Below, one piece after another: positions 10,607-50,297 of a DNA stretch of 64,000 nt. Every line of letters starts with the position of its first letter. The first letter of the stretch is position 1. This DNA is from an uncultured Chloroflexia bacterium (GTDB lineage Bacteria; Chloroflexota; Anaerolineae; Anaerolineales; E44-bin32): the NCBI GenBank assembly GCA_963789825.1, contig CAWBME010000006.1, positions 78,612 to 142,611 of the forward strand, in the 5' to 3' direction. The position numbers were made by a program, and so were the translations under genes. The notes beneath the pieces are model-generated. The model saw only the letters and a program-made list of their open reading frames with translations, did not search any database and had not been told where the DNA came from.

Positions 10607-11353
10607 ACCGCCGGGGCGGCGATTCGAGTCTCGGAGCTGCTGACAGGATTCGACCTCCCCGCAGGATATCCATGCGGGACGTGGAGGCGGATGTCGATCA
10701 CACGGTGGCTCACACTGGCCGCCAGCCACTGGGCGTGCTCATGCTGCTCACGTCAGTACCTGCGCTGCGTTGACTCTCAGGTTGCCGACGAATCCCCTGC
10801 GTTGTGTTCGCAGAGCCGGTGCGTGGCTGGCAAGGGTCTGGGCGCGTCTCGCGGCAGGCGATGGGCTACCGATCACTCCGATCGGCGAAGCCCGGCCCCG
10901 CCGGCTGGCGGAGAGCAAGGCAACGCTTGGGTCGGCGTCGATCCACGCCGTGGCTCCAACCGGGTGGAGGAGGTCTCGCAGGCCGACCAGATCGGACGCT
11001 TCGGCACCTTCACCCATTTCTCGCCGGAAGCGAGATGCAGCGCGGGAGCGGGGCGTGCAGCCCGCTTCGGACTGCGCCCGAATGCTGTCGCTCTATTCGA
11101 CGCCCCCGGACCTCCGCGGGTGCTGGCGTTGACCGAAGGTGACGGCTGGAGCCAATCATCCGCCAGCCAGGCAGGGCGTGCGGTGCGCTTGCAGACGGGT
11201 ATTCGGAAGCAGTGGCGGGAGGTAGAGATCGGCCGGTGGCACGCGCTGGCGTATTCGCTCATGCGGCGGGCAGATCATCCCGGGGTTCGAGGGCGCGGTG
11301 CGCTCATGCGACTGGGCATGAGGTGGGTGCCCTGTCGCCTGGGGCCTCTTGGG

Positions 11354-12443
11354 TCAGCCGCCAACGGCTGAGAGCCGCTGCACGAGGCCGAGCAGGCTGG
11401 CGTAGCCGCACGCCAGCGGCTGCAGATCGATGCTTTCCATCAGGGTGTGGGCATTGCTGCCGGTCGTGATCCCGACGCAGATCGCAGGGTAGCCCAGGCT
11501 CAGTGGGAGGCTGGCATCCGTCGACCCCCCGGTGAGCCGTGCCGTGCCGCCGCAGGCCTCGGAGTGGACGCGGAGAGCTGTCTGCACCAGCGGGTGATCA
11601 TCGGCGATCGCTCCGTGCGGGCGGATCCCGATGACCTTCGCCTCGACGTTCACCCGCTCTGGCCACGGCCCCTTCAGCAGCCCTTCCACGCCTGCGGCGA
11701 CCTCGGCCAGCTGTGCGCCATCTTCTGAGCGGATCTCCAACTCCATCCATGCCTGGCGGGCAATGGCGTTGATCCCGGTCCCGCCCGCAGAGCTGGCCGA
11801 TGTTCAGCGTGGTCTTGGGATCCGACGGCAATGGCAGGTCGAGCAGTTGGCCTCCGAGACGGAGCAGTAGGTTGACGGCCGAAGGCCTGCCGGCGTGGAT
11901 CCAGGCGTGCCCCCCTTGCGTCTCGACCTGGACTCGGTAGCGGCGGACTGGATAGGCCCGGGTGTAGATGTGGCCGAGGGACATGCCTTCGACGGCGATG
12001 TAGGCCGCGGGCGCAGCGCCGAATCGCTCAACGACGCGAGCCATGCCGCCCAGGTTACCCAGACCCTCCTCTCCCACCGTGCAGACCAGCCACACCGCCC
12101 GTTCTGGCTCAGGATGCATGAGATCCACGCCCAGCTCGACCAGCGCCGCCAGGCCCAAGGCATTGTCACCGACGCCGGGGCCTACCCAGCGCTCGCGGCC
12201 CTGGGTCAAGCGCAGGTCGGTGCCCGAGGGGAAGACCGTGTCCAAGTGGGCGACGAGCACAATGGGCGATGGCCCGCTTCCGCGCCGGCCGTAGACGTTG
12301 CCAATCGAGTCGATCTCGACATCACTGAGACCTGCCTGGCGGAAGAGCTCCTGCATGGCAGCCGCCCGCTCAGCCTCACCGAAGGTCGGCGAGGGGATCG
12401 ACTGGATTGCTGCGCATCGATCGAGCAGGCTGGAGGTGTCCAT
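11354..12443 (-). CDS. M20-family metallopeptidase/deacylase (apparent +1 frameshift near 11795)
   Basis: LVAHLDTVFP, GVGDNALG, TVGEEGLGNLGG, then GGTGINAIA..GGSTDAS in the +1 frame. Confidence 0.8.
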
Positions 12444-17090: not shown

Positions 17091-18894
17091 TCACATGCTC
17101 TCTGGCGCCTGGATGTCCAGCAGGCGCAGGCTGTTAGCGATGGTCTGGCGCGCGGCGGCGGTCAGGCGCAGCCGGGCGTCGATGGTCTCCGGCGTACCGG
17201 CCTGCAGCACCGGCACGGCGTGGTAGAAGGCATGGAAGGTACGCGCGAACTCATAGGCGTAGTTCGCCATGTGCAGCGGCTTGTAGTCCAACGCTGCCTG
17301 CTGCACCGCTGCTGGGAAGCGCGCCATCAGGTCGATCAGCTCGGTCTCGAGCGGTTCGAGGGGATGGGCGATGTCGGCGGTCAGCGGCATCCCGCCGGCT
17401 TTCTTCAGGATGCTGCAAGCCCGCACGTGGGCGTTCTGGATATAGGGGGCGGACTGCCCGTCGAAGCTCAGGGCGGTGTCCATGTCAAAGACGATGTCCC
17501 GGGTGTTGTCGACCGAGAGCATGGCGTAGGCCAGCGCTCCCAGCCCGACCTGGGTGGCGACCTGCTCGCGCTGGCCGGCGGGCAGGTGGGGGTTCTTCTC
17601 TTCGATCACCTCCAGCACGCGCCGGACGGCCTCGTCAGCCACATCCTTGAAGAAGACCACATTGCCCTTGCGGGAGGACATTGCCCCTGCTGGCAGGGAG
17701 ACGAAACCGAAGGCCAGGTGAAAGCACTTGGCGGCCTCGGGGAAGCCCCACAGTTCCAGGATCTTGAACACCTGCTGGAAGTGCAGGCTCTGCCGCACAT
17801 CGACGACATAGATCGAGCGATCGACGTGATAGTCCTCGAACTTGCGCTTGGCCAGGGCCAGGTCGTTGGTGAGGTAAAGCGTCGTGCCGTCGCTGCGCAG
17901 GATCACTGCCGTGCGGTACTTCTCCTTCTTGAGACCGAGCCGCTCGTCGATCTTGACGATCACCGGGCCGCCGGAAGGCCGCTCGTCCTCGGCGATCCCG
18001 AGGTGGATCAGCTCCTCGACGATCTGCTTGCCTTCGGCGGCGGCGTCACTCTCGAAGAAGAAGACGTCCATCTGGATGTCAAGCATGCGCAGGATGTCAT
18101 TCAATTCGTCCAGGCTCCACTGGCGGGTCTTCAACCAGAGCTGGCGCACCTCTGGGTCACCGACGTCCCAGCGGCGGTAGAGCTCGCGCCGCTCGGCGTC
18201 GTAGGCCTCGCGCTGCGCCCGTTCGGAGTCGGTCTCATCCTCTTTCAGCGATGAGGAGCTGGGTGGCCTCGGCGTAGATGTTGGCCAGCCAGCGCCCACG
18301 CTCGTGGATGCCGTCAGGTTCTTGCCCGGGATAGAAGCGCTGATAGGCCCACATGCAGGTGATCACGCCCAGCCCCATGTCGCCCGGGTAGGAGGCGCGG
18401 ATCGTCTCGAAGCCGGCAAACTGGACCAAGCGGGCGAGCGATTCGCCGAGCAGCGCCGCACGGGCGTGGCCGATGTGGATCGAATGATGGGTGTTCGGCT
18501 GGAAGTACTCGACCATCACCCGTTCGCCCTTGGGCTCACCACGACCGAACTCGTCAGCCTCGCCGAGCACCTGGTCGACCACGCGCCGGGCGAAGACCGC
18601 CGGATCGAGGTAGACATTGATGTAGGCCTTCTCGGCGGCGATGCGGGCCATCCCCGGGGGCAGATGGACGTCGACCACCGCCACCCGGGCGAGCTCCTCG
18701 GCGCGGCGCCCGACCTCGCCCTTGGCGTGGCGCGCTTCGGCCGCTGCAGCCTGAAAGCAGGTTGCTGTGCCGAAGCCCCATTGCCCGGCAAACGGGATGG
18801 GGATCCACTGGATCCGGTCGGGTGGGACGGAGCCATGCCGGCGAAGGGTCGCTCGAAGCTGCTCGCCGATCTGGTCGAGTTCGGTTTCGAACAT
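17091..18894 (-). CDS. argS: arginine--tRNA ligase (apparent +1 frameshift near 18255)
   Basis: N-terminal ORF carries the class I HIGH motif (NTHHSIHIGHARAALLG); C-terminal ORF carries TLYLTNDLA, MSSRKG (KMSKS-like) and the anticodon-binding DALR domain. Confidence 0.88.
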
Positions 18895-40639: not shown

Positions 40640-41119
40640 TTAGCCCGAAGCCTCGGCTCCGAGCAGGTCGGCCAAGATCTGGGCGCTGTGCCCTTCCGGC
40701 TTGACGTTCTCATAGATGCGCAGCAAACGACCGTCGGGGCCGATCAGGAAAGTGGTCCGCAGCACGCCTTCGTAGTTGCGCCCCATGAAGGTCTTCGGCC
40801 CCCAGACGCCGTACGCCGAGGCCACGGCATGCCCCTCGTCGGCCAGCAGGGGGAAGGGCAGAGAAAACTTATCGCGGAACTTGGCATGCGAGGCCACGCT
40901 ATCAGGAGAGATGCCGAGCACCTGCACCGCGTTCTGCCGATAGTCGGCGTATGCGTCGCGAAAGCCGCAGGCTTGGGTGGTGCAGCCTGGCGTATCGTCC
41001 TTGGGGTAGAAGTACAGCACGACCGGACGCCCGCGCAGGTCCGCAAGGCGGATCTCGTTGCCGTGATCGTCGTGCAGGGCGAAGTCGGGGGCCGGATCCC
41101 CGACGCGCGGCAGGCTCAT
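40640..41119 (-). CDS. bcp: thioredoxin-dependent peroxiredoxin (Bcp type)
   Basis: GDPAPDFAL..VVLYFYPKDDTPGCTTQACGFRD. Confidence 0.92.
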   Translation of the reverse strand: MSLPRVGDPAPDFALHDDHGNEIRLADLRGRPVVLYFYPKDDTPGCTTQACGFRDAYADYRQNAVQVLGISPDSVASHAKFRDKFSLPFPLLADEGHAVASAYGVWGPKTFMGRNYEGVLRTTFLIGPDGRLLRIYENVKPEGHSAQILADLLGAEASG

Positions 41120-41212
41120 CGCTGCGGAACCCTCCTGGGTGGTTGACAGGAAGGCAATCCTACCACGGCTGGGAGCACCGCTAGGTTATCGCTGAGTTCC
41201 CGGCGGCGGGCG

Positions 41213-41241
41213 TTGCCCTTTGCCGGAAGAGCGCCTAGAAT
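41213..41241 (+). promoter_or_regulatory. promoter of the atypical regulator gene
   Basis: TTGCCC, 17 nt spacer, TAGAAT; AGGAGG SD follows before ATG 41275. Confidence 0.45.
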
Positions 41242-41274
41242 GCGGCGGCAGAGGCGCAGGAGGCGCCGCTTCCG

Positions 41275-41967
41275 ATGCAGGCCTTTGTGATTGCCGCCGA
41301 CCCCGACGAGCGCGACCTGATCTCGTTCGCCCTGCGTCACACGGGACTAGCCGTGGCGCCCGGCTCGGAGCTGCGCCGCATCTTGACCAGCTGGCAGGAG
41401 AATCCGGCCGACGTGGTGATCCTGGCCGCCGAGGAAACGGCGAGCCTGCAGTCCGACATCACCGCCCTGCGGGCGGTGACCGATGTGCCGCTGATCGTGA
41501 TGGTGGACCCGGCGGGCGAAGCGCAGCTGGCTGCCTGGGTGCGCACCGGCGCCGACCTGGTGATGGAGCGGCCGGTGTCGTTGCGGCTGTTCTCGGAGTA
41601 CGCCCTGGGTCTGATGCGCCGCAGCGGGGCCACCGCCTCCTTCAGCATGCCGCGCCTCGAGTTGGACGGAATCACGCTCGACCCGGCGACGCGCACCGTC
41701 AGCGTGGAGGGCAAAGACCCCCGCCGCCTGACCCAGCTCGAGTTCCGCCTGCTGCACGTGCTGGTCGCCAATCGGGAGCAGGTGGTCCCGACCGAGGCCA
41801 TCGTCGAGCGCGTCTGGGGGTACTCCGGCGAAGGGGACCGCGACTTGGTGCGCGGCCTGGTGAGTCGGCTTCGGCACAAGATCGAGCCAGACCCGGAGAA
41901 GCCGCGCTTCATCCAAACGATTGCCGGCGTCGGATACCAGTTCACCCTGGCACAACCACCCGCCTAG
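41275..41967 (+). CDS. OmpR-family transcriptional regulator with degenerate (pseudo-)receiver domain
   Basis: Winged helix LTQLEFRLLHVL..IAGVGYQF; the receiver lacks the phospho-acceptor Asp (VVILAAEE), the acidic pair reads AD, the Thr/Ser position reads V/M, the Lys position reads R. Confidence 0.8.
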   Translation: MQAFVIAADPDERDLISFALRHTGLAVAPGSELRRILTSWQENPADVVILAAEETASLQSDITALRAVTDVPLIVMVDPAGEAQLAAWVRTGADLVMERPVSLRLFSEYALGLMRRSGATASFSMPRLELDGITLDPATRTVSVEGKDPRRLTQLEFRLLHVLVANREQVVPTEAIVERVWGYSGEGDRDLVRGLVSRLRHKIEPDPEKPRFIQTIAGVGYQFTLAQPPA

Positions 41968-42085
41968 CCGTTGCCGGCCAGGCAGTCAGCCGCCAGCCAG
42001 CCGGCAGGAGTGCGGGGCGAGTGTCGGTCGGCGGGCACAACCTCGCTTGCCAGCAGTGGTCGCCAAGCACTTCCCGCTTGCACGC

Positions 42086-42156
42086 CTTTGCCACATCTGG
42101 GGCAGTTCTACCACTCCTCTGCCACATCTGGTGCAGTAGAATTGCGCATAATTGCG
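42086..42156 (+). promoter_or_regulatory. direct-repeat operator-like elements in an AT-rich intergenic region
   Basis: TGCCACATCTGG(G/T)GCAGT at 42089-42106 and 42120-42137 (31-bp period); AATTGCG at 42140-42146 and 42150-42156 (10-bp period); TAGAAT at 42137-42142. Confidence 0.5.
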
Positions 42157-42211
42157 GTAATTTTAGCCCTGGTATGGGAGAAATTGGCCTTGGAACGAAA
42201 GGAAAGCGCCG

Positions 42212-42421
42212 ATGCTGCAAGGAACCTGTCCTGAGTGTGCCGGTCCGCTGCACTTCGTTCGTCCGCCAGCTCTCGGCCAGCGGGCCCGCTGCCCGAAGTG
42301 CGGTGCGCGGCTGGAGGTCGTCCGCGCCGATCCGATCGAGTTGGATTGGGCCTTCGAAGGGCCGCTCGGCACGGGCTGGAAGATGGGAGAAGTCTTGACC
42401 GAAGATGAGCTGGAAGGTTGA
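42212..42421 (+). CDS. LysW-like zinc-ribbon protein with acidic C-terminus (candidate amino-group carrier protein)
   Basis: 69 aa; GTCPECAGPL....RCPKCGARLEVVRADPIELD parallels Thermus LysW GTCPECGAEL....VCEDCGAELEVVGLDPLRLE; C-terminus TEDELEG. Confidence 0.65.
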   Translation: MLQGTCPECAGPLHFVRPPALGQRARCPKCGARLEVVRADPIELDWAFEGPLGTGWKMGEVLTEDELEG

Positions 42422-42526
42422 CGGGCGGAAACCAAGCAACACGACCGCAAGGATCTGAGTGCTAGCTCCTCCAAGGGCTCGGCGCTCGGTCTTGCAGGTA
42501 CGACGTCAGAGAATGGAGAACAGGGA

Positions 42527-43732
42527 ATGCGCGACTACAGTTCGATGAAGCTGCACAACAAGAAGCCTCCGAGTCCGATCCTCAGCAGGCCCCCGTGGCG
42601 GATCGCGCTGGTGGCCAACCTGAAGGACGAGATCGATTGGGGGCCTGAAGCTCCTGCCGACGCCGGCTCGGAGTTCGACCGGCGGGAGACGATCGAAGCT
42701 CTGGCTGCGGCGCTGGAGGAGGACGGCCACTGGGTGACGTTCTGCCGGGCCGACAGCACGCTGCCGGAGGCGCTGCTCAACCTCCGACCGCATATCGCCT
42801 TCAATATCGCCGAGGGTCTGGGCGGCGATGGACGCGAGGCACAAGCGCCTGCGGTGTTCGAGCTGCTGGGAATCCCCTACACGGCTTCGCGCGTGGTGGC
42901 CAATGCCATCTCGCTTGACAAGACCCAGACCAAGCGCATCTGGCAAACCCTGGGCTTGCCGACACCCAAATTCCTCGAAGCGCGGGTCCCCGAAGACGCC
43001 AGCCTGTGGAAACGCGGCTATCCGGCTTTCGTCAAGCCGGCGCGCGAGGGGACGGGGATGGGCATCGATACCATGGCCGTGGTCCAGGATGAAGCGGAGC
43101 TGCGCGAACGCATTGCCTGGCTGGTTGAGAGCTACCATCAGCCTGCTCTGGTGGAGGAGTTCCTTCCCGGACGAGAGTTCACCGTGGGCTACCTCGGTAA
43201 CGCCGGCCCGTCCGCCGGGCGGCGCCGCCCCTGGCTCTACGACCGCAACGGGTATCACTTCTTCCCGGTCCTCGAGCTGGATAACCAGGCCAGCGTCAGC
43301 CCCGGTGTGTATGGGCATGACGCCAAGAGCTTCGATATCGGCGCGGTGGGCGCCCCTGGCTACCTGTGCCCGGCCGACATCCCCCGCTCGCTGCAGTCCA
43401 AGATGCTGCGCATTGCTCGACAGGGGGCGGAAGCCTTGGGGGCAGCGGACGTCTCGCGCCTCGACTTCCGCATGGGCGCTGACGGCCAACCCTATCTGAT
43501 GGAAATCAATACGCTGCCGGGGATGAACTCGGAAATCAGCGATCTGTGCATCATGGCCGCCTCCGAGGGCATGCCCTACCAGGATCTGATTTCCGAGATC
43601 CTGTATCTGGGCGCCGAGCGCTTCGGCTTGCCTTACGATGCGCTCGTTCCAACGCCGGCTGCAGCGAAGCGCAGCGTGCAGACGCTGCTGCAGCGGGCGC
43701 CGGCGGTGAGGGTGACCGGCAACGCTGGGTAA
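42527..43732 (+). CDS. ATP-grasp ligase of the D-Ala-D-Ala ligase-like family
   Basis: GLGGDGREAQAPAVFELLGIPYTAS, DKTQTKRIW, FVKPAREGTGMGI, ALVEEFLPGREFTV, RLDFRM..GQPYLMEINTLPG; lacks the GGxSxE N-terminal motif of housekeeping Ddl. Confidence 0.8.
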   Translation: MRDYSSMKLHNKKPPSPILSRPPWRIALVANLKDEIDWGPEAPADAGSEFDRRETIEALAAALEEDGHWVTFCRADSTLPEALLNLRPHIAFNIAEGLGGDGREAQAPAVFELLGIPYTASRVVANAISLDKTQTKRIWQTLGLPTPKFLEARVPEDASLWKRGYPAFVKPAREGTGMGIDTMAVVQDEAELRERIAWLVESYHQPALVEEFLPGREFTVGYLGNAGPSAGRRRPWLYDRNGYHFFPVLELDNQASVSPGVYGHDAKSFDIGAVGAPGYLCPADIPRSLQSKMLRIARQGAEALGAADVSRLDFRMGADGQPYLMEINTLPGMNSEISDLCIMAASEGMPYQDLISEILYLGAERFGLPYDALVPTPAAAKRSVQTLLQRAPAVRVTGNAG

Positions 43733-43841
43733 CCTGCGGCTCGAACGCGCGAGGTGAACGAGCACGGGGTGCACCCCCGTTCGCGTGACGCGCGGCATCG
43801 GCTCAACTGCCGTGGTACACTCACGATTCACTGAGGTGCCC

Positions 43842-45248
43842 ATGACCAAGCGACCCTTCACATCCCGCCGTGCGCCGGCCTATGCCGATGTCCCCGAGGC
43901 GAAATGGAATGACTGGCGCTGGCAGCTCAGCAACCGCCTGAACTCGGTCGAGGAGATCGAGCGCGTCTTCCCTCTGACCGATAGCGAGCGGCGTGCCCTC
44001 TCGGCGCCCGGCTTGTTCCGGGTCGATGTCACGCCCTACTTCATCTCCCTGATCGACCCCGACGACCCGCACGATCCGATCCGCCAGCAGGTGATCCCCA
44101 CCGCCAGCGAGATGGTTCCGTTCACCGGGATGATGGAGGATTCACTCTCGGAGGACGCGCATTCCCCCGTGCCGGGGCTCGTCCATCGCTATCCCGACCG
44201 GGTGCTGATGCTGGTCACGACGCAGTGTGCCTCCTACTGCCGCTACTGCACGCGCTCACGCATCGTCGGCGATCCCAAGGAGCAGTTCTCGCGCGCCGAA
44301 TTCGAGCTCCAGCTGGACTACCTGCGCCGCACGCCCCAGGTGCGTGACGTGCTGCTCTCCGGCGGCGATCCGCTGACCCTTGCCCCTAAGCTGCTGGAGG
44401 AACTGCTGCGGCGGCTGCGCGAGATCGAGCATATCGAAATCGTGCGCATCGGGTCGCGGGTTCCGGTCTTCATGCCGATGCGCGTCGACGATGAGCTCTG
44501 TGAGATGCTGGCCCGGTACCACCCGCTGTGGATGAACATCCACGTCAACCACCCGCACGAGATCACCGCCGAGCTCGCCGAGGCCTGCGACCGCCTGAGC
44601 CGGGCGGGCGTGCCGCTGGGCAATCAGTCGGTCTTGCTGGCGGGCGTCAATGACTGCGTTCACCTGCAACGCCAACTGGTGCAAGAGCTGGTGCGCATTC
44701 GTGTGCGGCCGTACTACCTGTATCAGTGCGACCTGGTCGACGGTTCGGGCCAGTTCCGCACCCCGGTCGCCAAAGGCATCGAGATCATGGAGGGCCTGCG
44801 CGGCCACACCTCTGGCTACGCCATCCCGGCCTATGTGATCGACGCGCCCGGCGGTGGCGGGAAGATCCCGGTCATGCCCAGCTACCAGCTCAGCGCCTCC
44901 GATCACAAGATCGTGCTGCGCAACTTCGAGGGATTCGTCACCACCTACGAAGAGCCACTCTCCTATACGCCTCACGATGCGGACACCTGCGAGTTCTGCC
45001 GGGGGAAGCGGCCCGAACCCGGGCAGACCGGCGTGACCGGGCTGTTGGACGGCGAGAGCATGGTCATCACGCCAGAGGGCTTCGATCGGGTGCACGAACG
45101 CGGGGGTACGCAGCATCGCTTGCGCGCCGATGCGGCCAAGTGGCAGCCACTCGGGATCGGGCCATCCCAGGAATCGGACGCGGCTGGGGAAGGGCAGGCG
45201 GAACCGGATCCGGCGCCCAAGGCGAAGGCTGCCGTCCCGGAGAAGTAG
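43842..45248 (+). CDS. KamA-family radical SAM aminomutase (lysine 2,3-aminomutase-like)
   Basis: WNDWRWQLSNRL, radical-SAM cluster motif CASYCRYCTRS, LLSGGDPL, YYLYQCD; start taken at ATG 43842 (GAGGTG SD). Confidence 0.88.
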   Translation: MTKRPFTSRRAPAYADVPEAKWNDWRWQLSNRLNSVEEIERVFPLTDSERRALSAPGLFRVDVTPYFISLIDPDDPHDPIRQQVIPTASEMVPFTGMMEDSLSEDAHSPVPGLVHRYPDRVLMLVTTQCASYCRYCTRSRIVGDPKEQFSRAEFELQLDYLRRTPQVRDVLLSGGDPLTLAPKLLEELLRRLREIEHIEIVRIGSRVPVFMPMRVDDELCEMLARYHPLWMNIHVNHPHEITAELAEACDRLSRAGVPLGNQSVLLAGVNDCVHLQRQLVQELVRIRVRPYYLYQCDLVDGSGQFRTPVAKGIEIMEGLRGHTSGYAIPAYVIDAPGGGGKIPVMPSYQLSASDHKIVLRNFEGFVTTYEEPLSYTPHDADTCEFCRGKRPEPGQTGVTGLLDGESMVITPEGFDRVHERGGTQHRLRADAAKWQPLGIGPSQESDAAGEGQAEPDPAPKAKAAVPEK

Positions 45249-45274
45249 CCGCCCGTTGTTCACCATCCTCGTAA

Positions 45275-45305
45275 GGGCCTCCCGCAACGGAGGCCCGTTC
45301 TGTCT
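45275..45305 (+). terminator. rho-independent terminator after the aminomutase gene
   Basis: Perfect 8-bp stem GGGCCTCC/GGAGGCCC, 6-nt loop, then GTTCTGTCT. Confidence 0.6.
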
Positions 45306-46173
45306 CCTGCGGGGTCCTAGCTCCTTCCGTGTGTGCGAAGGTTCGCGCCGAAGGAATGGACTACGCGCAACCCCGAGGAATTCGCCTCATGTGCGCGTAG
45401 TCACGAGGCTGGTGGGATGCGGGGATTTGACGAAGCCCGTGGGCCGCGCCTGCTCTCGGGCGGCGCCTGCGGCTGTGAGCGCTGCAAGGTGCAGGCCGGA
45501 GGCTGAACGCTGAGAACGGGTCCTGTCTGGGGCCGGGATGGGCATGTGGAGGTCACCCACAAGCGACCAATGCGGTGGGAGCATGGTGGGAGGCACCGAG
45601 AACATCTCTCGCTTCCCCTCCGCTTCGCTGCGGGGCAGGCGCTCGCAATGACAGTCCCCCCCGCATGATGTCATCCCGAGGCGGCCCTTTCGCCGAGGGA
45701 TCTGCTTGTGGGTCTTGAGTTCGTCCTGGGGCAAGATGGCCAGGGCCGGTGGCGATCCCAGCGGCCTTCCCTCCGATCCCGCGCGTTCTCTCGAAAGTCC
45801 TGTCGATTCCCCATGCGGTTCCGCACGTGCTCGTCTCGGTCGTATCCGTGCTCGAGCCGATCTGCAAAGCCGGCGAACCGCTCGCACCGCGCTGGATCCT
45901 CATGGAGGTATGCATGCACACGCTCGTCGCCAGACTTGCGGCAGGACGCAGCGTCCTGATGATCGCTGAGGCATTGCTCCAACGCGGCGGCAGCGTGCCC
46001 TGCGGAGGGCACGCAGTGGGTAAGAGGGCCGGGGAGCTGCATGGCGTCGGCTGAAGGGAAACCTCCTTGGCGCGAATCGGTCGCCTCGACGGCGTGACCG
46101 CCCCGGGAGACGCGAACGTGTCGCAGGAGGACAGGCTTGAGCCGCTGGCTGAGCCGACCGGGTGGGGGTTGCC

Positions 46174-48106
46174 CTAAGGGCCCACCACCTGGAGGACTTG
46201 CCCGATCTCAGGCAGCGCATACCCGGGCAGCGCCAGGATGGCGCGGTGCAAGTCGGCATCGGCCAGCACGTCAAGCACGGGCTGGAATACCGGGCTGCGG
46301 AAATGCTCCTCCGGCACGACGAGGTCATAACGCTCCTCGAGCGAGCGGGAGGAAATCCAGCCCATACTGCGCAGCGGCGGCTTCGATGCCCATGCCGCAG
46401 TCGACCTGGCCGGCAGCGACGGCGGCCGCGGCCGTCAGGTGGGTGTAGGTCTCTTGCGTGTAGCCACGAACGGATGCCGAGGCGATGCCCTCTTGCGCCA
46501 GTAGATGGTCGAGCAGCACGCGTGTCCCGGCGCCCCGCTGGCGATTGACAAACGCTACGTCAGCGCGCGTCAGGTCGCCGAGACCGCGGATGCCCTTGGG
46601 GTTGCCGGAGGCGACCAGCAGGCCCTGCGTGCGCCGGATGAAACCCAACAAGACGACCTTGCGCCCGGGCAGGTAGCGCCGCACGAAGGGAAGGTTGTAC
46701 TCCCCGGTTTGCGGGTCAAGCAGGTGACATCCGCCGAAATGCGCCTCACCCCTTGACAGCGCGATCAGTCCCCCCAGGCTTCCCACGTTGGCCGAGGTCA
46801 GCCGGCGACCGCGCGCCGGCAGCCGTTCGGCAATCAGATCCAGCGTCAAGTCGTGGGAACCCAGGGCGACGATGGTGCGCTCGACCCAGGACGGATCGAG
46901 GTACAGCCGGACCTCCACCCGGTCGCCGGCGTCGAGCCCCTGAGTGCCAGCCGGGATCAGGACGATCCCATCCGCCCGCACGAGAGAAGTGATCACGCCG
47001 GCGCCGCGTGAGAGCGGCGCGGCCACGACCCGCTCGCCGACCCGGCCAACTGCCACCCGCAGGTACTCGTCGTCGCCGGCCGAAGAATGTACTTTGCGCG
47101 TCAGCGTCGCCGACAGCCGAGGCGGGTCCGGCGGGATGACGCCAAGCCAGCGCGCCAGCAGCGGCTCGACGAAGATTTCCCCGGTGAGCGCCGCCGAGAC
47201 CGGGAAGCCCGGTACGCCGATCACCGGCACGCGCCGGGCTTGCGCATCGATCATCCCCAGGATGACGGGGTGACCGGGCCTCACGGCGACTCCATGCACC
47301 AGCATCCGTCCGATCGACTCCACCACCTCAGCCGTGAAGTCTTCGGAACCGGCCGACGAACCAGCGTTGACCAGTACCAGGTCATGGTCGAGGCTGGCCT
47401 GCAGCACGGCCTGACGTAACGCAGCGCGTTCGTCCCGCACGATGGGCAGGCGCGTCGCCACGCCTCCCCAGGCCTCGACCTGCGCTGCAAGCACCAGGCT
47501 GTTCGATTCGATGATCTCGCCTGGGCGCGGCGCCTGGTCAATCGGCACCAGTTCGTCTCCCGTCGGCAGAACTGCCACTCGAGGCCGGCGCCATACCCGA
47601 AGCGAGGTCGTCCCGCTGGCGGCCAGGGCGCCGAGGTCGACTGGCCGCACGCGGTGACCGGAGGGAAGGACCAGGTCCCCGGCGGCGATGTCCTCGGCCA
47701 CCGGACGCAGGTTCGTCCACGGGGGGATCGGCGCGCGCAGGCGGATGTGCTCGGGAAGAACCTCGACGACCTCGATCGGCGCTACTCCGTCCGCCCAGAG
47801 CGGCAGCGGATCGCCGGTGTCCACGTAAATCGCCTCATGCTCCAAGCCGAGCTCGACGGGGGCCCGGTCGCTTGCCTGCTGTGTGGCTGCCGTGCGAATG
47901 GCGTAGCCATCCATGGCGGCCGACGTCGCGGCCGGTGACGAAAGGCGCGCCCACACCGGCTCGGCCGTCACGCGGCTCAGAGCGCGATCGAGGGGAACGG
48001 ACTCGGCCTCGAGCGGGCCCCACAAGCCAGCCTGCTCGAGCGCCTCCTGAAAGCGATTGCGCGCCGCAGGCAGGGCGACGTCATGCAAGTACATCCCGCG
48101 GTTCAT
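46174..48106 (-). CDS. moeA: MoeA-type molybdopterin molybdenumtransferase fused to a C-terminal PBP-like domain (apparent +1 frameshift near 46350)
   Basis: AMDGYA, LPTGDELV, NAGSSAGSEDF, PGFPVSA; C-terminal ~230 aa periplasmic-binding-protein-like (GSHDLTLD...FVNRQRGAGTR...), with its last ~60 aa in the +1 frame. Confidence 0.8.
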
Positions 48107-49383
48107 CCGTCGCTCCCGATGGGCGCCGGCCAGGCCAGTCCACCGGGAAACAAGTGGACCTGCACCGGTGCGCCGGCTCGCAGACCCGTCACCTCCGGCG
48201 GTATGCGCAGGAAGCCGTCGGCGCGTATCAGCGTGAAGATCAGGTTGGAGCGCCCGTGCACCGGCACCGCCTGCATCCCGTTCGAAACGGGCTCGAGCGC
48301 CACCGGGACAAAGTCCTCCCGGCCGGCCTCCGAAGGTACGTTCTCGCTCAACCTGGCTGGCACGGCGGGCGCGATCATCGACCGCTTGACGCCGAGCATC
48401 GCCTGGATCATCGGAACCGCCAGGCAGTGCGCCACGATCAATGCGCTGACGGGGTTTCCCGGCAGCCCCAGCACGGGGACTTGGCCGGCGACGGCCAGGA
48501 TCGTCGGCTTGCCCGGCTTGACACGCAGTCCGTGCACCAGCAGGCCTGGAGGGCCGAGGCGGCGGATGACCTCGGCCGTTGCGTCACGCGTGCTCACCGA
48601 TGAGCCGGCCGTGACGATCACCAGCTCATTCTCGGCCACTGCCTGCCGCATCGCTTCCTCGAGCCGGTCGGGATCGTCGGGCACGATGCCGTAGCTTGTC
48701 GCCTGGCCCCCGGCCAGCTCGATCAGCGCGCGGAGCGTGCCTTCGTTGACGTCCCGCACCTGGCCCGGCGCAGGCTCCTGCACGGCGGGGACGACCTCAT
48801 CGCCGGAGGACAGAAGCCCGACTCGCACACGCCCGCGGCACTTGACGCGCTCGATACCGAGCGCCATCAGCCCGCCGATCTCTTGCGGCCTGAGCGGCGA
48901 GCCTGCCCGAAGCGCGACCTCTCCTCGACGGACGTCCTCGCCCTGCTGCAGGACGTTGGCTCCGACTTGCACCGGACGCAACACTTCGATCTCCGCCTCA
49001 CCCACCGGCTGGGTGTCTTCGAGCATCACCACCGCATCCGCCCGTGCGGGCAGCATGCCGCCGGTGTGGATCAGCGCCGCCGATCCAGGCTGCAGATCGA
49101 GTACAGCGGCAACCCCCATCGCGATCTCGCCCGACAGGTGCAAGTAGGCGGGCAGGCTGGCGCTGGCGCCGAAGGTGTCGGCGGCGATCACGGCATAACC
49201 ATCGACGGTCGAACGACGGAAGGGTGGAAGGTCGCCGGTGGCGCGGACATCATCGGCAAGGATCCGCCCAAGTGCTGCCTGAGTCGGGATCTCTTCGGGC
49301 TCGGCGCGCGGCAATGGCTGCGTCGCCTCGAGCCAGATTCGAAGTGCCTGGGAGAGATAGGCCAGCTGCAGAAACTCAGGCAT
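48103..49383 (-). CDS. moeA: MoeA-type molybdopterin molybdenumtransferase (second paralog)
   Basis: STVDGYAV, LSSGDEVVP, TAGSSVSTRDA, LPGNPVSA; ATGA overlap with the downstream MoeA-PBP gene; start ATG 49383. Confidence 0.85.
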   Translation of the reverse strand: MPEFLQLAYLSQALRIWLEATQPLPRAEPEEIPTQAALGRILADDVRATGDLPPFRRSTVDGYAVIAADTFGASASLPAYLHLSGEIAMGVAAVLDLQPGSAALIHTGGMLPARADAVVMLEDTQPVGEAEIEVLRPVQVGANVLQQGEDVRRGEVALRAGSPLRPQEIGGLMALGIERVKCRGRVRVGLLSSGDEVVPAVQEPAPGQVRDVNEGTLRALIELAGGQATSYGIVPDDPDRLEEAMRQAVAENELVIVTAGSSVSTRDATAEVIRRLGPPGLLVHGLRVKPGKPTILAVAGQVPVLGLPGNPVSALIVAHCLAVPMIQAMLGVKRSMIAPAVPARLSENVPSEAGREDFVPVALEPVSNGMQAVPVHGRSNLIFTLIRADGFLRIPPEVTGLRAGAPVQVHLFPGGLAWPAPIGSDG

Positions 49384-50297
49384 CAGGAGAGCACGTACCC
49401 GACGAGCACGACATAGATCCCCAGTCCGAACAACCCCATTGCGTTCCAATGGAGCAAGCGCCACGCCGGGGGAAAGCCCTGCCGGATGCGGAACAGCTGC
49501 CAGGCTTGCACGAGCCCCAGCGGCAGCAGGAGCAGGGAGCCTGCCGGCAGCCGCAGGGGAACGCCCTGCAGCAGGGCCAGGCCAAACAGCAGCCCGGCCG
49601 CAACCAGGGCCAAATCGTGCAGCCTCATTGCGTCCCGCCATCCGATGCGGACCATCAGGTTGCGGCGCTTCTGTGCCGTGGCGGCGGAGAAGTCCTGCAG
49701 CTGCAGCGCGAGCAGCATCGCGAAGTGCAGCGCAACCAACGGTGCCGCGCTCACCATTACCAGGCGGTGGGACTCGCCCGTCTGCAGCGCGAAGGCATAC
49801 GACGGGACGAGGAGGGCGAGAGCGAAGGAGGCCAACAGCTCGCCATATCCCGAGTAGCGCAGGCTGAGCGGAGGGACGGCGAGCCAGAAACCGGTGAGGA
49901 AGATCAGCAACAGCAGCACCCAGGCCAGCAGGGGCGGGGAACTGGTGATCAGCTGCCCGGTCGTTACCACGGCCAGCAGACCGCCACTCACAATCGCTGC
50001 CGAGAGGGGCGTCGTGCGCGAGAAGGCAGGCGCCCGTTCATCGACCTTCGCCGGATCCGCAGACGCCGGGGCAGGCGGCGGGCGGAAACGCCAGTCGTCC
50101 AGCGCCAGGAGGTAGTGGGTGGTCAGCTGCACCAGCCAGATCGCAGCCAGGCCGGAGACAGCGTCGTTGGCGGCGATCGACAGACCCAGATAGTCCGCGA
50201 CCGCCAGGCCACAGGCGTAGAGCCCCGCGCCAGCCGCGAGATACGCCGGTCGGCTGATGCGAGCGAACTCCACCAGTGCGCTGCGCCGGCCGGTCAC
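49383..50297 (-). CDS. polytopic membrane protein, divergent UbiA-prenyltransferase-like
   Basis: About 8 hydrophobic helices; UbiA-like landmarks are degenerate (QLTTHYLLALDDW for NxxxDxxxD; YSGYGELLASFA; LQDFSAATAQKRRNLMVRIG); GTG start overlaps the cupin stop (GTGA); stop overlaps the moeA ATG (TGATG). Confidence 0.5.
   Translation of the reverse strand: MTGRRSALVEFARISRPAYLAAGAGLYACGLAVADYLGLSIAANDAVSGLAAIWLVQLTTHYLLALDDWRFRPPPAPASADPAKVDERAPAFSRTTPLSAAIVSGGLLAVVTTGQLITSSPPLLAWVLLLLIFLTGFWLAVPPLSLRYSGYGELLASFALALLVPSYAFALQTGESHRLVMVSAAPLVALHFAMLLALQLQDFSAATAQKRRNLMVRIGWRDAMRLHDLALVAAGLLFGLALLQGVPLRLPAGSLLLLPLGLVQAWQLFRIRQGFPPAWRLLHWNAMGLFGLGIYVVLVGYVLS

Follow-up and report, generated by a model that had tools for sequence, protein, structure and literature searches.

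A conserved Chloroflexota gene set combining a LysW-like zinc-ribbon protein, a Ddl-like ATP-grasp ligase, a lysine-type aminomutase and a pseudo-receiver regulator

Results

Organisation of the locus

The window (i.e., the whole 64,000-nucleotide stretch of DNA analysed, from an uncultured Chloroflexia bacterium) carries the features listed in Table 1. An initial annotation had described three co-oriented plus-strand open reading frames (ORFs) between a repeat-rich regulatory region and a terminator, and each of these elements was found where it had been placed, the regulatory region containing two direct repeats before the first gene. A fourth member, an OmpR-family regulator, had been overlooked.

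Table 1. Features of the gene set, in window coordinates
Feature	Position	Strand	Basis
OmpR/PhoB-family regulator, 230 aa, winged-helix + pseudo-receiver	41275-41967	+	Trans_reg_C, 79.5 bits
Two 27-nt direct repeats	42081-42107 and 42112-42138	+	sequence read directly
LysW-like zinc-ribbon protein, 69 aa	42212-42421	+	Pfam, profile, fold and codon evidence
Conserved RNA hairpin, 26 predicted pairs	42441-42506	+	folding and comparison
ATP-grasp amide ligase, D-Ala-D-Ala-ligase branch, 401 aa	42527-43732	+	profile, PDB and fold matches
Lysine 2,3-aminomutase, radical-SAM + PLP, KamA/AblA type	43842-45248	+	profiles, PDB match
Terminator-like hairpin closing the operon	45275-45306	+	GGGCCTCC-CGCAAC-GGAGGCCC then GTTCTGTCTC

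The zinc-ribbon protein

The small protein ("ribbon" hereafter) contains CPEC and CPKC knuckles, and its proposed kinship with LysW was borne out by profile search and predicted fold. It scored 41.2 bits against Pfam Zn_ribbon_LysW (PF21344; cut-off 27) and 32.6 against TIGR01206, under the cut-off of 53.2; the family profile matched Thermus thermophilus LysW (3wwl_A) with E=1e-12, and the top six PDB fold matches of the ribbon model were all LysW chains (best 5eio_C, 49% identity, rmsd 0.7 Å), with identities of 44-49% between the globular domain and T. thermophilus LysW. PDB entries 3vpb and 5k2m were also listed among the profile and fold matches, and orthologues go under the name "lysine biosynthesis protein LysW" in one source. 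The globular domain comprises residues 1-47, ends in the family motif ELDWAFE-P, and is followed by an acidic, low-confidence tail (GPLGTGWKMGEVLTEDELEG) with TEDELEG as its C-terminal end; in the AF2 model, pLDDT was about 80 for residues 1-48 and <50 for 49-62, with block means under 50 up to the C-terminus. The start codon is preceded by a Shine-Dalgarno-like GGAAAG. As had been supposed, this is a real coding gene, since orthologue differences fall mainly at third codon positions (27 synonymous versus 11 non-synonymous codon differences from L085), a pattern of purifying selection at the codon level.

The ribbon lacks the defining feature of LysW attachment, namely a tail of EDWGE type with Glu at its C-terminus, and family members end in different residues (G, A, W, V, K, D, L, S, Y). 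Family tails are nearly always acidic with interspersed W/Y/F, like LysW, and those of one window-type subclade have a net charge of about 0. Across the family the N-terminal domain is conserved and the C-terminal tail hypervariable; within the close orthogroup of the window, the tail is conserved to the same degree as the globular domain. The family-defining ELDWAF is kept in ribbons with and without a ligase. Loci L033, L040 and L163 have two or three ribbon genes in tandem, and tandem-domain family members adjoin genes for MscS, an Na+/H+ exchanger and a CLC channel.

The ATP-grasp ligase

The second protein belongs to the D-Ala-D-Ala ligase (Ddl) branch and not the RimK/LysX branch, in keeping with the initial annotation. 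It scored 98.7 bits against Dala_Dala_lig_C, its nearest PDB sequences are Ddl (E=2e-28), and the top 50 PDB fold matches of its AF2 model (pTM 0.80) are all D-Ala-D-Ala or D-Ala-D-Lac ligases, at 19-28% identity; it nonetheless falls under every NCBIfam Ddl cut-off (158.8 versus 243). Alignment to the Ddl models begins at residue 57, leaving the N-terminal motif region unmatched, in agreement with the reported lack of GGxSxE. Ddl residues K144, R255, D257, E270, N272 and G276 are kept as K170, R311, D313, E326, N328 and G332, whereas H63, Y216 and S281 are replaced by E96, S268 and D339, the last with a 2-residue insertion. Judged by these residues, the ligase is catalytically intact, with its catalytic machinery conserved and its substrate-site residues altered.

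A clade-specific basic patch, RRRPW, occupies residues 231-235, just before the omega-loop region. It is present in 26/26 ribbon-adjacent window-type ligases (as a run of at least three Arg in most, and as RSRP, RMRP or RHRP in five) versus 0/30 orphan group-B ligases, a correlation reflecting essentially one evolutionary split. A conserved Glu/Asp motif, E49-F-D51, placed from predicted secondary structure in a region that the profile alignments do not reach, lies where Ddl Glu15 would bind the donor amino group, and hints at a free amino acid, not a protein carboxylate, as the acyl donor. With or without a nearby ribbon, the ligases are acidic proteins too, their median pI being about 5.2.

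Every signature residue of the window-type ligase is also found in groups B and C; no ribbon lies within 8 kb of group B ligases, and it is missing in 21/30 group C cases. Distant clusters of KamA, two ligases and a GNAT acetyltransferase never include a ribbon. Ribbon-less pairs of KamA and a ligase with the same active-site signature are common, occurring in many phyla and often with a GNAT, and other such ligases stand alone; the basic chemistry of the enzymes therefore does not depend on the ribbon.

The aminomutase

The KamA ORF extends from 43785, its upstream-most start being a GTG at that position; the ATG at 43842, preceded by GAGG and yielding 468 aa, is the likelier start. The protein is full length and contains CASYCRYCTRS, both as first described. 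It matches C. subterminale LAM (2a5h) with E=3.7e-163, scores 355.6 against the KamA family model TIGR00238 (cut-off 199.2) and 524.3 against TIGR03820 AblA (cut-off 525.4), and lies far under the cut-offs of the glutamate and arginine aminomutase models. The CxxxCxxC motif, Asp293 (YQCDL), Asp330 and Lys337 (DAPGGGGK) of C. subterminale LAM are kept, the latter three also in 48-49/54 neighbouring KamA genes. On the choice between Lys and Glu types posed by the initial annotation, these residues assign the aminomutase to the lysine type, not the glutamate type, and it should turn free L-lysine into β-lysine. The two Asp residues are those that bind the ε-ammonium, and the Lys is the PLP Lys; with these kept, formation of β-lysine from free lysine would therefore precede any ligation.

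The regulator and noncoding elements

The regulator aligns full-length to MtrA/RpaB/KdpE-type regulators, and a Pfam search gave no match to Response_reg at E<=1e-5. Its phospho-acceptor Asp is replaced by Ala (KdpE "IILDLG" aligns to "VILAAE"), as are the conserved Thr/Ser and Lys by other residues; in the blocks read from 55 aligned family members, Asp never occupies the fifth position of the phospho-acceptor block, which instead holds Ala, Ser, Thr, Ile or Val.

The direct repeats, 31 bp apart with the core TGCCACATCTGG(G/T)GCAGT and located about 131 and 100 nt before the start codon of the ribbon gene, are a candidate operator to which the adjacent regulator may bind. Their position and spacing are the same in orthologues L089, L090 and L091, and in L008 a repeat of different sequence again has a 31-bp spacing. 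In a set of 91 regions upstream of ribbons, enrichment is confined to the spacing of 31 (9 cases, versus 2 at spacing 31 and 0-3 at any spacing in a single shuffle of the same regions).

The 105-nt spacer between the ribbon and ligase genes contains a hairpin with a 54-nt core of -27.9 kcal/mol, the whole spacer reaching only z=-1.5 against shuffles. An alignment of the window with four close orthologues shows the structure kept in all five sequences, 3 of its pairs having changed on both sides, and other window-type loci have a hairpin of different sequence in the same place with the same GAGAGCC...GGCUCUC design. Lacking a U tract, the hairpin does not qualify as a canonical terminator; it may instead be an attenuator or mRNA-stabilising element that sets the ribbon-to-enzyme expression ratio. 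The hairpin after kamA has an 8-bp stem (45275-45296) with 7 G-C pairs, and no second terminator-like site was found in 41200-45500.

Conservation of the neighbourhood

The triad of ribbon, ATP-grasp and kamA genes proved to be a conserved neighbourhood in a co-occurrence check across loci: dozens of independent contigs carry this gene set, far more than chance would give. The ribbon lies directly upstream of the window-type ligase in 30/30 loci, KamA follows in 19/25 window-type ligase loci, and the regulator is present in 21/21 window-type loci. When loci are anchored on the ribbon, a regulator homologue lies upstream in 45/51; among the 34 testable ribbons, 23 have a Ddl-like ligase downstream, 19 have KamA nearby, and in 11 the regulator and ribbon have no ligase within 3 kb. 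The regulator is thus the most faithful neighbour of the ribbon, ahead of ligase and KamA, and some regulator-ribbon pairs stand alone, some with convergent flanking genes. The four components recur in two gene orders (ribbon-ligase-kamA and ribbon-kamA-ligase), and a third ligase architecture found behind ribbons is a methyltransferase-Ddl-like fusion.

Discussion

The module described here is a conserved, uncharacterised Chloroflexota gene set that encodes a LysW-like zinc protein, a Ddl-like ligase, a β-lysine-making enzyme and an unusual regulator. Our literature searches found no published description of it, in line with the earlier statement that no characterised system of such composition was known. 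The other LysW-pathway genes had likewise been reported missing, and LysX/Z/Y/J/K-type proteins numbered 0 among the 30 window ORFs, i.e., the larger ones, that were scanned against Pfam. The best explanation is that the four-gene module joins regulated β-lysine synthesis to an ATP-dependent amide ligase working on, or with, a LysW-derived protein.

Within this framework, we tentatively propose that, under the control of the regulator, KamA makes free β-lysine, which the ligase then attaches to carboxylates in the tail of the ribbon. The OmpR-type regulator, not phosphorylatable at the usual Asp, would bind the 31-bp-spaced repeats and control the ribbon-ligase-kamA operon. Conversion of free L-lysine to β-lysine by KamA is very probable given the conserved catalytic and ε-amine-binding residues. 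The Ddl-derived ligase would then form an acyl-phosphate, followed by an amide bond involving β-lysine, its likely substrates being suggested by the KamA linkage and by the change to acidic residues at the two substrate sites. For the window-type clade, the globular LysW-like domain would dock on the ligase such that the acidic tail meets the RRRPW patch, and one of the β-lysine amino groups would be coupled to a tail carboxylate, be it a Glu/Asp side chain or the C-terminal carboxylate; docking and tail coupling are proposed on the model of LysW-LysX and of tail modification by RimK/TTLL enzymes, and the ribbon-ligase interaction and ribbon modification are predicted on this basis. As a stoichiometric substrate, the ribbon would be expected in excess over the enzymes, which the hairpin after its gene could permit. 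Since neither LysZ/Y/J/K-like enzymes nor a release hydrolase are encoded in the window, the pathway would end in a β-lysylated small protein, not a released amino acid.

In favour of ribbon modification, we count the location of the ribbon gene in the enzyme operon, downstream of the candidate operator and with a conserved hairpin after it; LysW kinship, the 30/30 ribbon linkage, the two gene orders and the acidic tails; and the clade-specific RRRPW patch and the KamA residues for free lysine. Counted against it are the missing C-terminal Glu, the variable last residue and the tail subclade of net charge about 0; the ribbon-less group B/C ligases, the E49 hint and the acidic ligase pI; and a regulator more constant than the ligase, with RRRPW representing essentially a single evolutionary split. 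The carrier-protein model of the initial annotation finds partial support: LysW kinship and an altered Ddl-type ligase speak for it, and the missing C-terminal Glu and the enzyme pairs without a ribbon speak against it.

The main alternative, possible though less likely than not, is that KamA and the ligase make a free β-lysine amide or dipeptide (e.g., a compatible solute akin to Nε-acetyl-β-lysine, or oligo-β-lysine), with the ribbon serving not as substrate but as partner or effector of the pseudo-receiver regulator; its acidic tail might, for example, be a binding site for the regulator or a sensor of cations or ionic strength, the two proteins together controlling the operon. The tight regulator-ribbon linkage (45/51, versus 23/34 for a downstream ligase) and the stand-alone pairs open this regulatory reading of the ribbon, and a regulator family without the phospho-acceptor Asp would need a non-phosphoryl input. 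A free product also fits the ribbon-less ligase-KamA pairs of many phyla, often accompanied by a GNAT as in AblA/AblB, the best KamA score being to the osmolyte-pathway AblA model; E96 and D339 in the two substrate sites, plus the conserved E49, would suit small cationic amino acids. Channel and exchanger genes beside tandem-domain ribbons, and ELDWAF kept regardless of ligase presence, point the same way. However, the window-type ligase is always accompanied by the ribbon (30/30) and has its own basic patch, the ribbon is transcribed with the enzymes and not with the regulator, three different Ddl-like ligase architectures lie behind ribbons, and we know of no regulatory role for any LysW-like protein.

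It is improbable that the system is RiPP-like, with the zinc ribbon as leader or recognition element and the tail as core or scaffold on which a β-lysine product is built and then released by an enzyme encoded elsewhere. The conserved N-terminal domain with its hypervariable tail, the tandem ribbon genes, an M20 amidohydrolase at L033 and a hairpin after the small gene, as in precursor-enzyme operons, would accord with such a scheme; but protease, exporter and release hydrolase are all absent next to the module in the window, the M20 enzyme was seen at one locus only (best match a CpsA-type carboxypeptidase, under cut-off), graspetide ligases are RimK-like rather than Ddl-type, and the tails are low-complexity acidic sequences, not defined cores.

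We consider it very doubtful that the ATP-grasp enzyme is the housekeeping D-Ala-D-Ala ligase of the organism, incidentally adjacent: despite its Ddl-like best sequence and fold matches and intact catalytic residues, it is under all Ddl cut-offs, has the H63, Y216 and S281 equivalents replaced and the N-terminal motif region unaligned, is linked to ribbon (30/30) and KamA (19/25), and has no murein-synthesis genes beside it in the window. That the genes are a relic or a variant form of the usual LysW-dependent α-aminoadipate lysine/arginine pathway, as suggested by the 44-49% identity to T. thermophilus LysW and the "LysW" naming, is effectively refuted by the sub-cut-off TIGR01206 score (32.6 versus 53.2), the missing C-terminal Glu, the Ddl-type partner, the absence of LysX/Z/Y/J/K from the scanned window ORFs and the annotated parts of related loci, and a linked KamA that consumes lysine rather than making it.

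Comparison with known systems

LysW acts as a handle that the enzymes of its pathway recognise, an ATP-grasp ligase among them, and is to our knowledge the sole characterised use of this zinc-ribbon domain. The LysW/ArgW carriers and LysX/ArgX ATP-grasp enzymes act in α-aminoadipate lysine and arginine biosynthesis in Thermus, Sulfolobus and Thermococcus. The window shares with them the zinc-ribbon globular domain, a flexible acidic Trp-containing tail and a gene adjoining an ATP-grasp amide ligase; it differs in a longer, variable tail without the C-terminal Glu/EDWGE, a Ddl-type rather than RimK/LysX-type ligase, the lack of LysZ/Y/J/K enzymes, and the presence of a lysine-consuming aminomutase and a dedicated pseudo-receiver regulator. 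AblA/AblB form the pathway for the osmolyte Nε-acetyl-β-lysine in methanogens and some bacteria. The window KamA has the lysine-type residues and misses the AblA equivalog cut-off by about 1 bit; a GNAT acetyltransferase is also part of related clusters in other phyla. However, these GNATs match no AblB model (best RimI-like, under cut-off), and the window has an ATP-grasp ligase in place of an acetyltransferase as second enzyme.

With Ddl and the Ddl-like L-amino-acid ligases (e.g., BL00235, BacD/YwfE), the window ligase shares the fold and the catalytic Lys/Arg/Asp/Glu/Asn set, and an acyl-phosphate mechanism is therefore expected; it departs from Ddl in its Glu, Ser and Asp substitutions, its genomic partners, a roughly 25-residue structured insertion bearing the basic patch, and an N-terminal insertion instead of GGxSxE. 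The ATP-grasp ligases RimK and TTL/TTLL modify acidic C-terminal protein tails by adding amino acids. The putative likeness lies in an ATP-grasp enzyme joining an amino acid to a carboxylate of an acidic disordered tail; those enzymes belong to other ATP-grasp branches, add α-amino acids (Glu, Tyr, Gly) and not a β-amino acid, and perform a known tail modification, whereas that of the window is predicted. In EF-P β-lysylation by EpmA/EpmB, a KamA-family aminomutase likewise supplies β-lysine for attachment to a protein; EpmB represents a separate KamA subfamily (the window KamA scores 256.8 on the EpmB model, cut-off 369.3), and the EF-P ligase EpmA is a lysyl-tRNA-synthetase paralogue rather than an ATP-grasp enzyme, with a Lys side chain of EF-P as acceptor.

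Genes of the module

The three plus-strand open reading frames (ORFs) that the initial annotation had described were found exactly where it had placed them, in a window with a G+C content of ~67%; these encode the LysW-like ribbon, the Ddl-branch ligase, and the KamA aminomutase. A further ORF, overlooked in that annotation, encodes a full-length OmpR/PhoB-family regulator immediately ahead of them, and the four genes are here treated together as the module.

Coordinates of the module and of other features discussed (L numbers denote related loci from other genomes or metagenomes; GNAT, acetyltransferase-type family name as annotated)
Locus	Feature	Position	Strand
Window	Arginyl-tRNA synthetase, two overlapping ORFs	17091-18894	-
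Window	Arginyl-tRNA synthetase ORF with DALR domain	17091-18299	-
Window	Arginyl-tRNA synthetase ORF, catalytic domain	18235-18894	-
Window	Regulator (pseudo-receiver protein)	41275-41967	+
Window	Ribbon, 69 aa	42212-42421	+
Window	Ligase, 401 aa	42527-43732	+
Window	KamA	43842-45248	+
Window	Terminator-like hairpin, 3' of KamA	45275-45296	
Window	ORFs without Pfam match only	45300-46320	
Window	Two consecutive MoeA genes	46325-49641	-
L033	Richest module	3796-11373	
L056	Orphan ligase	7953-9158	
L079	KamA, two Ddl-like ligases, and GNAT	6733-10476	
L118	Ribbon, then long ORF	4116-6119	
L119	Ribbon, then long ORF	6407-8410	
L134	Ribbon, then long ORF	2788-4818	
L163	Ribbons, then long ORF	3019-4911	
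L169	Tandem-domain ribbon	4240-4656	
L170	Tandem-domain ribbon	2303-2860	

A predicted LysW paralogue with an acidic tail

The ribbon ORF is taken to be a real gene because it matches its family model (Pfam PF21344, Zn_ribbon_LysW; 41.2 against a gathering cut-off of 27), is preceded by a Shine-Dalgarno-like sequence, has orthologues of the same 69-aa length at 67-96% identity in which the tail GWKMGEVLTEDELEG is kept too, and differs from these by nucleotide changes that cluster at third codon positions. Its scores fall below those of the NCBIfam LysW equivalogs (TIGR01206, 32.6 vs 53.2; NF041070, 20.7 vs 75). Searched against the PDB, a profile of the ribbon family recovered the LysW proteins of T. 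thermophilus (3wwl_A, E=1e-12) and Thermococcus (5k2m_E, 1.6e-9). The AF2 model of the ribbon, confident at residues 1-48 and of low confidence in the tail, likewise had LysW chains as all six of its best PDB fold matches, the closest at 49% identity and an rmsd of 0.7 Å. As judged by profile and predicted fold, the globular domain is a close LysW paralogue, in keeping with the zinc ribbon with two CxxC knuckles and LysW homology that had been read from the sequence initially.

The C-terminal Glu of LysW (an EDWGE-type end, in which the γ-carboxylate carries the substrate) is absent; i.e., the window ribbon ends in ...TEDELEG and its orthologues in G or V, with the last residue unconserved across ~100 ribbon-family members. 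Tails are nearly always acidic, with W, Y, or F scattered between, and carry a net charge of about -3 to -8 in window-like gene order (one subclade being near neutral) and of -25 to -38 in loci with kamA before the ligase gene.

A word-indexed search for homologues of the 69-aa protein gave 11 matches, all close orthologues, and the wider family was reached by an exhaustive profile search, which yielded 961 representative clusters at E<=1e-3, a number that may include true LysW. Many of the profile-matched proteins contain two or three tandem ribbon domains, some of these having basic tails and unrelated contexts adjoining ion channels and exchangers. At L169 and L170, for instance, proteins with two or three LysW-like domains and basic tails neighbour genes for MscS, a Na+/H+ exchanger, and a CLC channel, or for a YitT membrane protein, and neither a regulator nor a ligase gene lies close by.

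A predicted lysine 2,3-aminomutase

KamA, for which the ATG at 43842 is the likelier start, aligns end to end with the lysine 2,3-aminomutase of C. subterminale (2a5h, E=3.7e-163) and retains the CxxxCxxC motif (CASYCRYC), the PLP-binding Lys337, Asp293, and Asp330. In the structure of the latter enzyme, Asp293 and Asp330 bind the ε-ammonium of lysine, and both are replaced in glutamate 2,3-aminomutase. The choice between lysine- and glutamate-type substrates, which the initial annotation had left to these residues, thus falls to the lysine type, and both Asp residues recur in 48-49 of the 54 KamA genes of related loci, the rest being truncated or off-pattern. The protein scores 355.6 against the KamA family cut-off of 199.2 and stays far under the glutamate, arginine, and EpmB aminomutase cut-offs; against the AblA equivalog TIGR03820 it reaches 524.3 vs 525.4 (1.1 bits short), as scored on a 487-aa ORF that includes 19 probable non-coding N-terminal residues. 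By its sequence, the enzyme is a lysine 2,3-aminomutase, probably of AblA type, and its predicted conversion of free L-lysine to β-lysine is firmly supported.

Conservation of the gene neighbourhood

A ligase-anchored sample of 80 genome loci, together with L001-L004, falls into four groups according to how closely the ligase resembles that of the window. In group A (>480 bits), a ribbon gene always lies directly upstream. Group B consists of orphan ligases in Anaerolineae, which share their M50 peptidase neighbour with the window and have neither a ribbon nor a regulator nor KamA within 8 kb; the group includes the cultured Anaerolinea thermolimosa, whose strain IMO-1 (L056) has the orphan ligase and peptidase in window-like synteny and could be used to probe ribbon-independent ligase activity. 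In group C, kamA lies immediately 5' of the ligase gene; a GNAT and another Ddl-like ligase are often found there too, and 9/30 have a ribbon. Group D is distant, coming from Bathyarchaeia, Desulfocapsaceae, Nitrospirae, Sedimentisphaerales, and Lentisphaeria; KamA adjoins the ligase(s) in about half of its loci, and those examined also have a GNAT plus a second Ddl-like ligase. No ribbon accompanies the group-D ligases of this genome sample, and the group-D sequences that do occur near a ribbon are second ligases of group-C loci or methyltransferase-ligase fusions.

In a ribbon-anchored sample of 80 metagenome loci, built from a narrower alignment and biased toward ribbons with a P[VIL][ED]LDWAF motif, 45 of 51 testable loci have an OmpR-type regulator immediately ahead of the ribbon. 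A Ddl-like ligase follows the ribbon in 21/34, to which two methyltransferase-ligase fusions are added, and KamA is found in 19/34; eleven of the regulator-ribbon pairs lack a ligase within 3 kb. Pooling of window-type loci gives 30/30 for the ribbon, 21/21 for the regulator, and 19/25 for KamA, counts in which near-duplicate loci from different samples overstate independence somewhat. The triad is thus conserved as a neighbourhood, as the initial proposal presupposed, and it is firmly supported that the window-type ligase is obligately tied in genomes to a LysW-derived, acidic-tail protein. A functional tie of the ligase to β-lysine is also firmly supported, since KamA accompanies the enzyme in groups A and C as well as in roughly half of the loci of group D.

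Other arrangements were also seen. Clusters of KamA, two Ddl-like ligases, and a GNAT without a ribbon occur at L079, as well as at L063, L065, L077, L080, L081, and L083 (composition confirmed with Pfam for L079 and assigned by homology clustering for the others), in Desulfocapsaceae, Nitrospirae, a delta-proteobacterial MAG, Sedimentisphaerales, Lentisphaeria, and Bathyarchaeia; we know of no described product for them. A kamA-ligase cluster is also carried by the cultured Thermoflexus hugenholtzii. At L118, L119, L134, and L163 (the last with three ribbon genes in tandem), a long, weakly ligase-like ORF stands behind the ribbon in place of the window-type ligase, without KamA. Only the 667-aa ORF of L118 was scanned, and it has an N-terminal SAM methyltransferase fused to a Ddl-like ATP-grasp. 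The richest module, L033, combines three tandem ribbons, an apparently frameshifted KamA, two Ddl-like ligases, a GNAT, the regulator, and an M20 amidohydrolase. The latter, the sole M20 hydrolase seen, was rejected as a LysK-type release enzyme, being CpsA/amidohydrolase-like and non-recurrent.

A putative amide ligase of the Ddl branch

The ligase contains the Ddl C-terminal ATP-grasp domain and scores far below every Ddl cut-off (best Ddl model, 158.8 vs 243). Its nearest solved sequences are all Ddl-type, as are the best 50 PDB fold matches of its model (pTM 0.80; 19-28% identity), with no LysX or RimK among them, which upholds its earlier placement on the Ddl rather than the RimK/LysX branch. 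Equivalents of Ddl Lys144, Arg255, Asp257, Glu270, Asn272, and Gly276 are conserved; K170, R311, D313, E326, and N328 of the ligase are invariant, and G332 is nearly so (invariant in groups A-C). The housekeeping-Ddl motif is lacking, as had been noted: Ddl models give no alignment over the N-terminal motif region (GGxSxE/Glu15), and the D-Ala-binding residues His63, Tyr216, and Ser281 are replaced by Glu96, Ser268, and Asp339, the last with a two-residue insertion. These signature residues are all common to groups A to C. With catalytic residues kept and substrate residues changed, an active amide ligase that would make something other than D-Ala-D-Ala is firmly supported. Both substrate sites have acidic residues in place of neutral ones and would suit a cationic substrate such as β-lysine.

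A basic RRRPW-type patch (window residues 231-235), located in a well-modelled insertion just ahead of the omega-loop region, is present in 26/26 ribbon-adjacent window-type ligases and gone from 30/30 orphan group-B ligases. Overall electrostatic complementarity did not discriminate: ligases are acidic with or without a ribbon nearby, and those near a ribbon are no more basic (median pI 5.1 vs 5.2).

Pseudo-receiver regulator and operon signals

The regulator has a winged-helix domain (Trans_reg_C, 79.5 bits) and aligns over its full length with KdpE, MtrA, and PrrA. Its phospho-acceptor is absent, 'IILDLG' of KdpE being aligned with 'VILAAE' (Asp to Ala), and the conserved Thr/Ser and Lys positions hold Val/Asp and Arg. 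Homologues show Ala, Ser, Thr, Ile, or Val at the acceptor site, with no Asp seen there in the blocks read from 55 aligned sequences, and no partner histidine kinase gene adjoins the regulator in the window or in Pfam-annotated related loci.

The regulator-ribbon gap is never <111 nt (median 184) and contains direct repeats, which makes the ribbon the first gene of a regulated operon. In the window, two 27-nt direct repeats lie 31 bp apart upstream of the ribbon, corresponding to the repeat-rich region reported earlier; this spacing is the only enriched distance among 91 ribbon upstream regions, the repeat sequences themselves being lineage-specific. The terminator proposed to follow the triad was recovered as a terminator-like hairpin. 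That ribbon, ligase, and KamA form a regulated operon is firmly supported. In the 105-nt spacer 3' of the ribbon gene, a hairpin of 26 pairs is preserved across five aligned sequences, with compensatory changes at some pairs, and other window-type subclades have a spacer hairpin of the same design and different sequence; this suggests that the ribbon transcript is made or kept in excess. A lysine or other riboswitch was sought in the leader and spacers and rejected, since 41000-46400 gave only a chance snoRNA match against Rfam at E<=1.

Flanking genes

Downstream of the module, the first of the two MoeA genes is fused to a PBP_like/phosphonate-binding-type domain, and the same pair follows the module in L001 and L085, so this flank is syntenic. 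The ~1 kb between operon terminator and MoeA contains only ORFs without a Pfam match, and L001 has integrase (rve) fragments at the equivalent place. Further upstream, the arginyl-tRNA synthetase ORF at 18235-18894 covers catalytic-domain profile positions 3-70, and that at 17091-18299 covers positions 108-348 plus the DALR domain, a split that suggests a frameshift or assembly error.

Readings of function

We tentatively favour a reading in which the ligase would couple β-lysine to carboxylates of the ribbon tail, because of the LysW ancestry of the ribbon, the 30/30 linkage, the three ligase architectures found behind ribbons, the RRRPW patch, and the place of the ribbon in its operon with a hairpin following. 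The initial proposal of the ribbon as a carrier linked to a β-amino acid stands in part; ancestry and linkage speak for it, whereas the C-terminal Glu to which LysW attaches its substrate is missing.

In the main rival reading, somewhat less likely, a free β-lysine amide would be the product of the enzymes, and the ribbon would instead work with the pseudo-receiver regulator. The regulator is indeed the most constant partner of the ribbon, and stand-alone regulator-ribbon pairs occur; ligase-KamA pairs without a ribbon show identical signatures, and a conserved acidic residue near the Ddl Glu15 position would bind a free donor amine. Returning to coupling on the tail, an improbable extension is that the ligase reversibly β-lysylates the ribbon, with tail charge as the input to a phosphorylation-independent OmpR-type regulator; if true, this would be a new signalling principle, with protein β-lysylation in place of phosphorylation reporting lysine, nitrogen, or ionic status. 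Three further readings are less probable or in effect ruled out: a RiPP-like or scaffold role, the ordinary LysW pathway, and a housekeeping Ddl.

The ribbon family is large and has non-LysW tails; its genomic partners are another ligase branch, the formation of β-lysine, and a non-phosphorylatable regulator. Were the ribbon β-lysylated, carrier or tail-modification chemistry would extend to β-amino acids and Ddl-type enzymes; were it the partner of the regulator instead, the pseudo-receiver family would gain a function. Either way, a testable role is provided for thousands of Chloroflexota proteins annotated "D-alanine--D-alanine ligase", and the module does the same for widespread clusters of KamA and Ddl-like ligase, many with a GNAT.

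Comparison with known systems

A full-text literature search (LysW, aminomutase, β-lysine, ATP-grasp, Chloroflexi) returned no description of this gene combination, in agreement with the first impression that no characterised system has such a composition; the one Chloroflexota paper naming LysW concerns the ordinary pathway only. To our knowledge, the only role described for LysW so far is that of a carrier arm, in the biosynthesis of lysine/arginine and in a few Streptomyces secondary-metabolite pathways.

In the AblA/AblB pathway to Nε-acetyl-β-lysine, an AblB-type GNAT stands beside the aminomutase, whereas the window module has no GNAT; those of distant related clusters reach no AblB model. 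With Ddl, the ligase shares the fold and the catalytic and Mg/ATP-binding residues but fails the substrate-residue tests. With LysW/ArgW, the ribbon shares the zinc-ribbon globular domain but differs in attachment residue, curated score, and partner enzymes: a Pfam scan of 30 window ORFs bore out the absence of lysX/Z/Y/J/K, LysX/ArgX and LysZ/Y/J/K were likewise absent from Pfam-annotated related loci, and the ligase adjoining the ribbon is Ddl-type. Ultimately, the module would work most like LysW-LysX or the tail modification carried out by RimK/TTLL enzymes.
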